A stretch of 64,000 nucleotides of DNA, taken from the IMG/VR virus record IMGVR_UViG_3300017598_000768, positions 1 to 64,000 of that record. One strand, written 5' to 3'. Source of the stretch: a virus. Shown in pieces: positions 6,775 to 30,098 of this stretch (positions are counted from its first letter, which is position 1; each line of letters opens with the position of its first letter). Below the pieces are notes generated by a model that was not told where the DNA came from, did no database searches, and was given only the letters and a program-made list of their open reading frames with translations. The translations under genes and the position numbers were made by a program.

Positions 6775-7110
6775 CTACTTCTTTGGAAATCGTATCGTTC
6801 TTACCGCATCACCTACACTCAGCATTCGGACTGTTTTCCGTTCTTCACTGCTAACTGCTGGCATCAACATCTCCAGACTGTCAGGCTCCACGGAGCATCG
6901 CATGCTTACTTCCTCTCTGAGAAGCACACGCTGGTCTAAGCTGCGGACTCCATCAAGAGCAGTGTAATGCTCCATGTACTCACTTTCTACATCGATAACT
7001 ACTGACGAGCACCTGAACTGGAGTGAAGCGACGGGGGCATCTTGTGAGCCTGCTCCCTCAAAGCTTACTATTCCTTCACCAAGCATCATCGAGCTTATTC
7101 TTTCTGACAT
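6775..7110 (-). CDS. hypothetical protein with C-terminal VRTIRF motif
   Basis: ORF filling the gap between the epimerase and ParB genes. Confidence 0.55.
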   Translation of the reverse strand: MSERISSMMLGEGIVSFEGAGSQDAPVASLQFRCSSVVIDVESEYMEHYTALDGVRSLDQRVLLREEVSMRCSVEPDSLEMLMPAVSSEERKTVRMLSVGDAVRTIRFPKK

Positions 7111-8135
7111 CCGCCATCCCCCCATCTGTGCTCAATCTCGTTCACTATCTTCACCGACACATTTTTGCCATACGGCTGTTCCCATGCATCAGCAAACTTG
7201 GCATGCTTCATTGCACTCGCCATATACCGCGAGGGCTGCATTGGACTTATCAACACATTACACTTAAGCGCCAGCGTCTCCTGCCGCTCGGTATTCGGTC
7301 TTATAGTAAACGTTCTCGTTCCAAGCACGCATGCCTCTTCTTGGAGTCCTCCACTGTCAGTAAAAACATACGAAGACTGTTCAATCATTTTCCACATTCT
7401 CTTCGGTCCAACAGGAGCCATGGCAACTATATGCGGTGGGATCTGCAAGTCGCTTAGCGTCAACATGTCCTTCGTCAACGGGTGGATTGGGAAATGAACA
7501 TTCATCCTTTCCGACTCTGCAAAGTCGTTTACTGCCTTCAGCGTCCTGGCAAACATTGGCTTGTTTCTTACTAACTCGGGTCTGTGGAGTGTCATCACAC
7601 CGGACCTTTCCCTTCGGGGCGACCCAGCTCTAATCACATCTACTATCGTGTTGCCAGTAACGCACATCTTGTTAAACGGTATGCCTTCATCAAGACAGTT
7701 CTGTATGTTCATTCGAGTCGGGCACATTAGCACGTCCGCTGCATGGTCTATCATCTTTCTGTTTCTTTCCTCCCGCATGCTTTCGTCAAATGACCTTAGA
7801 CCAGCCTCCACATGCACCAACGGTGTTTTCGTGTGAACCGCTGCAAGGGCACCGAGAACTCCAGACGTTGTGTCTCCCTGAATAATCACCACGTCCGACT
7901 CTTCTGCAAAACCAGCTATCTTTTCAAAATCATACAGAACCATCCTTCTATCCAAACACTTCTTGCTGTCCACCTCATAGCCCAACTCATCAAAAATGGC
8001 TATGGACATATCCTCCGAAAAATGCTGCATGGTGTATGCGAACATCACCATCCATTTCCTTCTCTGCATCTCCTTAACAACCGGACATAGCTTAATGATC
8101 TCCGGACGCGTCCCAGCAACAATCAATACTCTCAT
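7095..8135 (-). CDS. wecB: UDP-N-acetylglucosamine 2-epimerase (non-hydrolysing)
   Basis: GTRPEIIK, QGDTTS, HVEAGLRS, GNTIVD, TLHRPE, TDSGGLQEEA, TERQE. Confidence 0.92.
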   Translation of the reverse strand: MRVLIVAGTRPEIIKLCPVVKEMQRRKWMVMFAYTMQHFSEDMSIAIFDELGYEVDSKKCLDRRMVLYDFEKIAGFAEESDVVIIQGDTTSGVLGALAAVHTKTPLVHVEAGLRSFDESMREERNRKMIDHAADVLMCPTRMNIQNCLDEGIPFNKMCVTGNTIVDVIRAGSPRRERSGVMTLHRPELVRNKPMFARTLKAVNDFAESERMNVHFPIHPLTKDMLTLSDLQIPPHIVAMAPVGPKRMWKMIEQSSYVFTDSGGLQEEACVLGTRTFTIRPNTERQETLALKCNVLISPMQPSRYMASAMKHAKFADAWEQPYGKNVSVKIVNEIEHRWGDGGCQKE

Positions 8136-8192
8136 TCATCCTCCTTCACCATTATTTGCAAGCGCTTGCAAATTTTACGCTGCCTCCATTCA

Positions 8193-8267
8193 TGGAGCGG
8201 ACAGGAGGATTCGAACCTCCGACCTCCAAGCGGGGAGCCTGGCACTCTACCACTGAGTTATGCCCGC
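8193..8267 (-). tRNA. tRNA-Gly(CCC), atypical (C37, G38, A51-U63)
   Basis: 75-nt cloverleaf GCGGGCA-TA-ACTC AGTGGTA GAGT-G-CCAGG CTCCCCG CTTGG-AGGTC-GGAGG TTCGAAT CCTCC-TGTCCGC-T-CCA; G1-C72, C2-G71 and U73 Gly identity elements. Confidence 0.92.
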
Positions 8268-8274
8268 TTTTGTT

Positions 8275-8793
8275 TTAGATACACGCTCTCACTTTTCCAT
8301 CAAAGACAAAGTCTGAGTTATGCTTCCCCCAGTAAAACAGACGGTCTTCTCTTTTCGATCCTTTCGGACCATAATCCGTGCGCCTGACTTCTCCTACAAA
8401 AATCGTGTGCGAGCCAACTGTCATTGACGATATCTTTCTACACACCATAACACACGGAGAACCTTTTAGCAATGGACATACTGACGTGTCCGACCATTCA
8501 ACTCCTTCCATTATTGTCAGCTTATTCCCGTCTACTCCAGAGCATGAGCCGTAAACCCGCGCCAGTTCTGCATCTGCTGATCTTAGAAAATTCACTCCAA
8601 ACCAGTCAGCTGCCATCAACAAGCCGTGCGAGAACCTCCTCTTGCTTATGGCAATCATGTATTGCTGCGGATTATACCCACAGCTCATGTGCCATTCTAC
8701 AGGGAGGCAGTTCGATGGGCCGTCTGGGACTTTCACACTGACCAGAACTATCTCCCTCGGGCCATGTTGAATCCTTTCATCATAACCAGCCAT
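8275..8793 (-). CDS. flavin reductase-like (split-barrel FMN-binding) protein
   Basis: PVEWHMSCGYNP, FGVNFL, GSCSG..GNK, VGSHTIFVGEV. Confidence 0.8.
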   Translation of the reverse strand: MAGYDERIQHGPREIVLVSVKVPDGPSNCLPVEWHMSCGYNPQQYMIAISKRRFSHGLLMAADWFGVNFLRSADAELARVYGSCSGVDGNKLTIMEGVEWSDTSVCPLLKGSPCVMVCRKISSMTVGSHTIFVGEVRRTDYGPKGSKREDRLFYWGKHNSDFVFDGKVRACI

Positions 8794-18993: not shown

Positions 18994-19533
18994 CTATTTT
19001 GCAATCGCTTGCAAATCCTTTCTGAACTTCTTCAACACCTGTTCTTCGTATTTCAGCAGCGGTCTGAGACGCGCCTTCGGGTTATGGAAATGGAATCCGA
19101 AATCAGCCAGAGCATACGCTACAAACTCATCGTGCTTCTTGAACTCCACCTTGAATTTTTTATACACAGCAACAGGGATCATGTCTTTCTTCAGATCTCC
19201 TCTGCCTGATATCCACTTCTTAATTACTCCACTTCCAACGACAGTCGGATGCTTGCCGGTCCATCTCCACAACACCAGCTTCACTATCCCGCCAAGCTCT
19301 GCCAGCGTCGCCAGGCTTGACTTCTTCGGGCTGATCCCATACGCATAGTCTTCTATGAAAAAAATATCTCCTTTGGCGCTGTTCTTCCGGATCTCATCGG
19401 CAATCTGAAACGATCGTTCTGTTATATTCCCACAACCCGGACTCGTACCAAACCACCAATGCTCATGGTCGTCGTTTGCCAGCCTCACCATTCCGGTTCC
19501 GGTTAACGACAAATCAAGACCTACTATTCCCAT
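18994..19533 (-). CDS. RuvC-like Holliday junction resolvase
   Basis: IVGLDLSLTGTG, FIEDY, LAELGGIVK, IKKW..G.G...K. Confidence 0.8.
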   Translation of the reverse strand: MGIVGLDLSLTGTGMVRLANDDHEHWWFGTSPGCGNITERSFQIADEIRKNSAKGDIFFIEDYAYGISPKKSSLATLAELGGIVKLVLWRWTGKHPTVVGSGVIKKWISGRGDLKKDMIPVAVYKKFKVEFKKHDEFVAYALADFGFHFHNPKARLRPLLKYEEQVLKKFRKDLQAIAK

Positions 19534-25982: not shown

Positions 25983-26250
25983 CTTCGAATCGTTCCTCTA
26001 CTTCATCGGCTTTGGTTTGCAAGCGCTTGCAAACACTGGTCCAGCGCCAGTCTTGAAATGCAAAAGTGGTTGCGCACCCCAAATGAGTTATACAAGTCTC
26101 CGTATTCCCCCGCTCATAATGCTTCAAAGCAGACAGGGCAAATGTCCAGAACACAATCGGACCGTACAACCACCACTTCTTCCACCTCCAATAAAAATGG
26201 AAATGGAAAAAATACATGCGCCAACCTACAAAATACAACAGCTTCACCAT
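25948..26250 (-). CDS. aromatic-rich hypothetical protein
   Basis: Only minus-strand ORF filling the gap; overlaps both neighbours. Confidence 0.4.
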   Translation of the reverse strand: MVKLLYFVGWRMYFFHFHFYWRWKKWWLYGPIVFWTFALSALKHYERGNTETCITHLGCATTFAFQDWRWTSVCKRLQTKADEVEERFEDAKTRRNKFPA

Positions 26251-30060: not shown

Positions 30061-30098
30061 TCCAACAAAAAAATTTGCAAGCGATTGCAAAAAAAGAC

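Follow-up and report, generated by a model that had tools for sequence, protein, structure and literature searches.

The tRNA-Gly(CCC) gene at positions 8193 to 8267 appears to encode a rare type of phage tRNA that is not part of a sugar pathway, because the same design recurs in unrelated phages without sugar genes. Judged from its sequence, it is a tRNA-Gly by every identity feature, and it lacks two traits that elongator tRNAs ordinarily have, namely a purine at position 37 and a tight T stem. An earlier note on this DNA suggested that the tRNA is charged and then diverted from ribosomes as a glycyl donor for an amino sugar; this reading is not supported. The explanation that we find best, and to which we give about an even chance, is that the phage tRNA decodes GGG and that its anticodon loop and T stem were reshaped, perhaps escaping host defenses that target tRNAs.

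The phage and its record

The window, that is the whole 64-kb stretch analyzed here, is the first part of a 99,832-nt IMG/VR viral contig with an estimated CheckV completeness of 86%. Nearly all the phage genes lie on the minus strand and they include those for the large terminase (TerL), portal, DNA polymerase, helicases, RecA and tail proteins. The best TerL matches, 35–38% identical, are found in siphoviruses of Vibrio, Rhizobium and Stenotrophomonas of 80–100 kb. The DNA of the sugar cluster that surrounds the tRNA has no match among isolated phages, and tRNAs of isolated phages are at most 75–79% identical to the tRNA-Gly(CCC). When the flavin reductase and WecB were used as queries in viral contigs, no related loci were found; the flavin reductase has a single close relative, P0002 with 85% identity, encoded on a 2.8-kb contig.

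In one marine sediment metagenome DNA run, two 250-nt contigs match the WecB-like gene (positions 7291–7540 and 7673–7922) with 99–100% identity, and no contig of the same run covers the tRNA-Gly. These matches are the only hint regarding habitat.

A further tRNA-like gene lies outside the window, at 89949–90035 on the minus strand of the 99.8-kb record (G000; 1453–1537 of L174). It is called by ARAGORN, weakly, as an 87-nt class-II tRNA-Tyr(GUA) with A73 and an encoded CCA, and its only Rfam match, to tRNA-Sec, stays below the threshold (31.9 bits, E 0.001). A 294-aa ORF at 2042–2926 on the minus strand encodes a thymidylate-synthase homologue that shares 49% identity over 279 aa with the product of a gene in G306, a 64-kb AT-rich viral record that is described below.

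The tRNA gene and its neighbors

The features of the locus are as follows.

8193–8267, minus strand: tRNA-Gly(CCC) gene, 75 nt, CCA encoded (ARAGORN; Rfam RF00005, 60.6 bits, E 1.2e-10)
8231–8237, minus strand: anticodon loop CUCCCCG, with C32, U33, anticodon CCC (8233–8235), C37 (8232) and G38 (8231) (from the sequence)
8204–8220, minus strand: T arm, stem GGAGG/CCUCC, with A51 (8218), U63 (8206) and the canonical T loop UUCGAAU (from the sequence)
8275–8793, minus strand: flavin reductase ORF, upstream, its stop 7 nt before the tRNA-Gly (Pfam PF01613, E 3.3e-25)
7095–8135, minus strand: WecB-like UDP-GlcNAc 2-epimerase ORF, downstream, its start 57 nt after the tRNA-Gly (Pfam PF02350, E 1.5e-58)
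8155–8172, no strand: 18-nt perfect palindrome TTTGCAAGCGCTTGCAAA, between the tRNA-Gly and the WecB start (DNA motif search)

This gene is the sole ARAGORN tRNA call in the 64-kb window. Its position, its uniqueness there and its co-oriented placement 7 nt after the flavin reductase and before WecB had all been described in the earlier note, and ARAGORN and Pfam agree with that description. The sugar cluster upstream of the tRNA encodes an NAD-dependent epimerase/dehydratase, a DegT aminotransferase, a methyltransferase, an SGNH hydrolase and a GT4 glycosyltransferase. Beside the tRNA-Gly itself, nothing resembling a promoter or a terminator was found. The palindrome, counted with its near copies, occurs 14 times in the window where 0.04 would be expected, and it is probably an operator or a unit-boundary signal of the phage. 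Its location suggests that the tRNA lies at the boundary of two units; since one of the 14 copies stands between the tRNA and WecB, the tRNA would end one unit rather than stand in the middle of a pathway. Further sites of the palindrome are seen, for example, at 26016–26033, 18998–19015, 30074–30091 and 56205–56222.

Structure of the tRNA

The acceptor stem consists of G1-C72, C2-G71, G3-C70, G4-C69, G5.U68, C6-G67 and A7-U66, followed by U73 and the encoded CCA. The bacterial Gly identity set comprises G1-C72, C2-G71, G3-C70, U73, C35 and C36, and it is complete in this tRNA. The D loop, AGUGGUA, contains both G18 and G19, and other canonical parts are U8, A14, the G15-C48 Levitt pair, G53-C61 and the T54-U55-C56 loop. 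The anticodon stem is CCAGG/CUUGG and the 7-nt loop reads C32 U33 C34 C35 C36 C37 G38, in which C32 and G38 are able to pair. The T stem, GGAGG/CCUCC, holds G49-C65, G50-C64 and A51-U63. The loop with C37 and a pairable C32-G38, as well as the A51-U63 pair, are thus read in the sequence just as they were reported earlier. In ViennaRNA the minimum-energy fold is a cloverleaf of -30.4 kcal/mol, and the isolated anticodon arm folds into six pairs with a five-base loop, the probability of the 32-38 pair being 0.998. Of the traits that are usual in elongators, the purine at 37 is replaced by C37 (8232), and the tight T stem that is typical for Gly, an amino acid that itself binds weakly, is, by prediction, replaced by a weaker one (-9.4 kcal/mol).

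How rare the design is

Few features of tRNAs are as constant as position 37. The base there is described as a purine that stacks on the codon–anticodon helix (PMC5699536). We scanned one genome per species, 185,579 prokaryotic species in all, for a tRNA-Gly D-loop word, U33-CCC-C37 and a canonical T loop. This C37 pattern gave five stretches and no tRNA, in a scan that demanded the D-loop word TGGTAGA at a fixed spacing and would miss variants such as L175 and L176 (see below). Without the D-loop constraint, 401 genomes of one phylum also gave no tRNA. The corresponding A37 control pattern matched 203 of 301 genomes of one phylum and the reversed control matched none; among the A37 genome matches listed, every loop is UUCCCAA and every base 51 is G. 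The statement that a pyrimidine at 37 is exceptional is borne out for tRNA-Gly(CCC) by the count of zero among the species genomes. In viral contigs the A37 pattern gave at least 120 stretches, and the pattern GGCTCCCCGCTNGG...GTTC gave 15, roughly as many as chance would produce, with no tRNA among them.

Metagenome contigs yielded 17 tRNAs with the C37 pattern. Eleven of these have ordinary bacterial-type bodies with one extra or substituted C, and loops of UUCCCCA or of eight nucleotides, UUCCCCAA, which is the sufD kind. In the other six, which represent four distinct sequences, the loop is precisely CUCCCCG. When viral contigs were searched for this loop with no condition on the D loop, two further members came up, L175 and L176. 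Together with the phage tRNA this makes seven distinct sequences, six of them from other phage or metagenome contigs, in which the loop is invariant. The combination of C37 with a weak T stem in a tRNA-Gly is far from chance, and among the collections searched the CUCCCCG design appears to be restricted to phages. We found no description of such a tRNA-Gly class in the literature searched.

The same scans also returned tRNA-Gly-like genes with 8-nt CCCC loops, CUCCCCAU or UUCCCCAA, in two IMG/VR contigs (L037, 10620–10691, and L038, 3041–3112) and in two metagenome contigs (L030 and L031). They are either natural four-base readers or homopolymer errors. Both L037 and L038 also bear a salivarius-1 RNA.

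The CUCCCCG-loop family

The anticodon stems of the family vary (CCAGG, CCCGG, UCUGG, CCUGG, UCAUU and CCCCU) around the constant loop. Across the seven sequences 99.3% of the stem cells are paired, with compensatory changes in 12 of the 21 pairs, while G1-C72, C2-G71, G3-C70, U73 and CCA are invariant. The acceptor elements for GlyRS that the earlier note found intact are hence shared by all seven members, and the stem covariation together with the invariant Gly identity argues that the gene is under selection as a Gly tRNA. The pair 51-63 is A-U in five members, U-A in one and C-G in one, and never G-C, so that the odd loop and the weak stem occur together in all seven.

The carriers are unrelated phages with a GC content of 30–49%. 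In G306, the record behind L175, there are 25 tRNAs and the CUCCCCG variant is the sole CCC tRNA-Gly, and in both the phage and G307, a complete 41-kb carrier, it is the only clear tRNA. The tRNA of L021 is surrounded by AAA, HNH, RtcB tRNA ligase and GmrSD-like genes, and that of L176 by Mu-like protease, HNH and HTH genes.

Some additional observations were made in the contigs of the relatives. Their tRNA arrays contain tRNAs with a long variable arm (L021, 2490–2575 and 6577–6662; L029, 2611–2698; L016, 38–124; L175, 5579–5661), which are class-II-like and have unexpected anticodons, such as Asn GUU with G73 and Gly UCC in a tRNA of 83–86 nt. The phage-like contig L021 also has a c-di-GMP-I riboswitch aptamer at 9966–10040 (Rfam, 50.9 bits), near a gene with a GmrSD N domain. 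At 50726–50803 of G306 there is a tRNA with the anticodon CUA, labeled 'Pyl' by ARAGORN, that may act as an amber suppressor and may point to TAG reassignment.

T stem and predicted EF-Tu binding

The affinity for EF-Tu was predicted from the T-stem table of Schrader and Uhlenbeck (PMC3239215). For the phage T stem (GC/GC/AU) the predicted dG is -9.4 kcal/mol, which is 1.6 kcal/mol off the mean of the Gly-CCC class (-11.0 kcal/mol, sigma 0.34, n=78; PMC3239215). In the same work the staphylococcal cell-wall tRNA-Gly, at -9.5 kcal/mol, was classed as a true outlier (PMC3239215). The seven CUCCCCG-loop tRNAs are predicted to lie between -9.1 and -10.1 kcal/mol, and 112 viral tRNA-Gly(CCC) controls with A37 have a mean of -11.03 (sd 0.29); the only weak stems among these controls are those of L097 and L112, both relatives of the phage tRNA. 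The few neighboring His, Ile and Asn tRNAs in the arrays of L021 and L029 that were checked by hand with this table are near their own class means, and the weak stem therefore appears to be specific to the CUCCCCG-loop tRNA. The conserved weak 51-63 pair looks like the outcome of selection for a low EF-Tu affinity.

Is the tRNA a donor for the sugar cluster?

In the earlier note the glycyl group was proposed to be transferred to the amino sugar made by the DegT aminotransferase. Six-frame profile searches of the 99.8-kb record, in which the positive controls were detected, gave no FemAB (PF02388), Fem-like GNAT/Acetyltransf_6 (PF13480), LPG_synthase_C, Leu_Phe_trans or Acetyltransf_1 at E<=1, and four related records gave no FemAB (PF02388). 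The remark that no Fem or GNAT transferase can be recognized is upheld by these searches. One of two large unexplained ORFs near the cluster is an all-helical protein with only viral hypothetical neighbors, and the other is a GT4 glycosyltransferase. The single-sequence AlphaFold model of the 334-aa ORF is poor (pLDDT 38.7) and, together with the Atlas neighbors, served only to indicate an all-helical secondary structure, and sequence searches of the PDB with the 499-aa and 274-aa ORFs gave nothing useful. A second glycan cluster of the window encodes three LbH acyltransferases, which could acylate an amino sugar from CoA donors.

The other six CUCCCCG-loop tRNAs are found in tRNA arrays or beside unrelated genes (RtcB, HNH, Mu-like protease). 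No homologue of any of the phage's sugar genes was found in the DNA examined from the loci and records of these relatives, so the conserved linkage with sugar genes, whose absence the earlier note itself had named as evidence against its idea, is missing in all six. DegT is absent from the records behind L097 and L112 (G304 and G305), in which no homologue of the phage TerL was found either. At E<1e-4 the phage has no protein in common with G307 and only two in common with G306, one of them the thymidylate-synthase homologue, and a dedicated phage partner enzyme is therefore unlikely. The proposed role as a donor for the DegT amino sugar is thus disfavored on both counts, by the lack of a detectable transferase and by the lack of linkage.

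Comparison with known tRNAs

The canonical tRNA-Gly(CCC) of the E. coli glyU type agrees with the phage tRNA in its anticodon, its length, its D and T loops and its set of GlyRS identity elements, and its bases 32 and 38 can also pair. It differs in having UUCCCAA, G51-C63 and a predicted affinity of -11.0 to -11.2 kcal/mol, against CUCCCCG, A51-U63 and -9.4 in the phage.

The staphylococcal non-proteogenic tRNA-Gly shares with the phage tRNA the weak A51-U63 pair with a nearly equal predicted EF-Tu affinity, the extra C32-G38 pair that leaves a five-base loop, and ordinary charging by GlyRS, which on the phage side is predicted. The same arm shape, six pairs and a five-base loop, has been reported for those staphylococcal tRNAs that do not bind to ribosomes. 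Yet the staphylococcal tRNAs lack G18G19 and U55 (their T loop has UGC or UGU) whereas the phage tRNA keeps G18G19 and UUCGAAU; their pairs 49-65, 50-64 and 51-63 are all weak, in contrast to 51-63 only in the phage; and they carry UCC and live with Fem transferases, while the phage tRNA has CCC and no Fem was found. The non-proteinogenic hallmarks that had been ascribed to the phage tRNA can accordingly be accepted in part: the weak 51-63 pair and C32-G38 stand, and the retained G18G19 and U55, the strong 49-65 and 50-64 pairs and the Fem partner that was not found speak against them.

Phage tRNAs with substitutions in the anticodon loop, for which evasion of anticodon nucleases was proposed, were described by van den Berg et al. 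(PMC10264068). Like the tRNA studied here, they are phage-encoded and otherwise canonical, with a loop that departs from the cellular consensus beside the anticodon, and the relatives of the phage tRNA-Gly likewise stand in tRNA arrays, one of them beside an RtcB ligase. They differ in that the cases described have neither a pyrimidine at 37 nor a retuned T stem (PMC10264068). The tRNAs of T5 are discussed in relation to retron and PARIS systems in two further papers (PMC11555353, PMC11464382). The sufD-type +1 suppressor tRNA-Gly also has four consecutive C in its loop, but there the anticodon is CCCC in a loop of eight nucleotides, whereas in the phage loop of seven the C37 replaces A and is not inserted.

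Discussion

We infer both that this tRNA decodes GGG and that its reshaped loop and T stem serve an escape. The tRNA would be functional, charged by GlyRS and most likely still employed in translation, where it would read GGG. It would be transcribed as the last part of the flavin-reductase unit and released by RNase P and 3' processing, so that its site in the sugar cluster would be positional and not functional. The canonical UUCCCAA would have become CUCCCCG by a change of the 32-38 pair from U-A to C-G and of A37 to C, and the strong G51-C63 of the T stem would have become a weak pair. The loop, and perhaps the T stem, may have been reshaped under pressure from host attackers of tRNAs such as anticodon nucleases, in a way that would keep the 32-38 pairing by which GC-rich anticodons are tuned. 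Indeed, U32-A38 to C32-G38 retains the pairing potential at 32-38, the tuning position of tRNAs with GC-rich anticodons (PMC6720975).

GGG makes up 20% of the Gly codons in the phage (13.9 per 1000 codons) and 24% in G307 (19.8 per 1000). This heavy use of GGG, the set of 25 tRNAs in G306 and the RtcB neighbor in L021 are contexts that point to translation. Efficient decoding is not assured, since no tRNA-Gly(CCC) with a pyrimidine at 37 was found in the 185,579 species genomes and the purine at 37 has a stacking role. The loop differs from the cellular consensus at 32, 37 and 38, and we know of no nuclease that is specific for tRNA-Gly(CCC). The occurrence of the same 7-nt loop in phages of 30–49% GC suggests a specific positive requirement, which it fits better than an escape from varied nucleases. 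The conserved weak 51-63 pair, next to the tight stems of the 112 A37 controls, also looks like evidence against the GGG-decoding reading.

These points lead to another option, which we nonetheless regard as unlikely, namely that the tRNA is a non-ribosomal glycyl carrier: GlyRS would charge it, its T stem and loop would keep it away from EF-Tu and the ribosome, and an unrecognized transferase would use it for N-glycylation of an amino sugar or for another glycyl transfer. The predicted EF-Tu affinity of -9.4 is about that of the staphylococcal tRNA (-9.5), the six-pair stem and the five-base loop closed by C32-G38 match the staphylococcal description, the loop and the weak stem co-occur in seven of seven family members, and the gene lies here inside the DegT/WecB cluster. 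However, none of the five transferase domains named above appears in the 99.8-kb record at E<=1, FemAB is missing from the four related records as well, the unexplained ORFs of the cluster are all-helical or GT4, and the three LbH acyltransferases could do the acyl transfer from CoA donors. The relatives have no nearby sugar genes, no protein is common to the carriers, and G18G19 and U55 are kept, unlike in the staphylococcal tRNAs. A broader form of this idea, to which we assign a similarly small chance, is that the CUCCCCG tRNA-Gly is a phage-specific class of glycyl carriers that avoids EF-Tu and the ribosome and feeds a tRNA-dependent glycyl transfer, invisible to current profiles, whose catalyst would be either an enzyme of the host or one of the phage that has diverged very far.

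It is also conceivable, and in our view improbable, that the RNA does not decode and acts as a decoy or sponge that binds or occupies a host defense protein or sensor directed at tRNAs. The loop that is invariant across unrelated phages and the tRNA repair genes close by in L021 would agree with such a role, and as there is no phage partner protein in common the target would be a host factor; yet a decoy would not need the conserved GlyRS identity elements and the encoded CCA, and it would be without precedent for tRNA-Gly. Recoding, in which CCCC at 34-37 drives +1 frameshifting or four-base reading at GGGG, or C37 pairs with a G before the codon, is a very improbable use of the tRNA. Frameshift suppressors derived from tRNA-Gly(NCC) are known (PMC6720975) and our own scans returned the 8-nt CCCC-loop tRNAs of L030, L031, L037 and L038, but the phage loop has 7 nt and not 8. 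Moreover, in no phage gene does a long +1 frame open behind a GGG-G site, which speaks against the +1 frameshifting at GGGG that had been raised earlier, GGG-G is under-represented (0.24 vs 0.34), and the base before GGG is unbiased in comparison with other Gly codons (p=0.25). Least credible of all, in our estimate, is that the gene copy is decaying or neutral, or that the C run was misassembled: a C homopolymer could be miscalled, but independent contigs of several samples have this loop too, and the stems show compensatory changes and 99.3% pairing.

As regards the sugar cluster, the analysis takes away an attractive connection to the tRNA that has no support. The tuning of the T stem for EF-Tu is thought to hold across bacteria, and here a conserved and clearly selected tRNA breaks this rule and the purine-37 rule together. 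Should it decode GGG, translation would be seen to tolerate a pyrimidine at 37 where all three pairs of the anticodon are G-C, and nuclease-proof or orthogonal tRNAs could be modeled on this natural example. Should it not decode, the staphylococcal cell-wall tRNAs would have in it their first phage counterpart.
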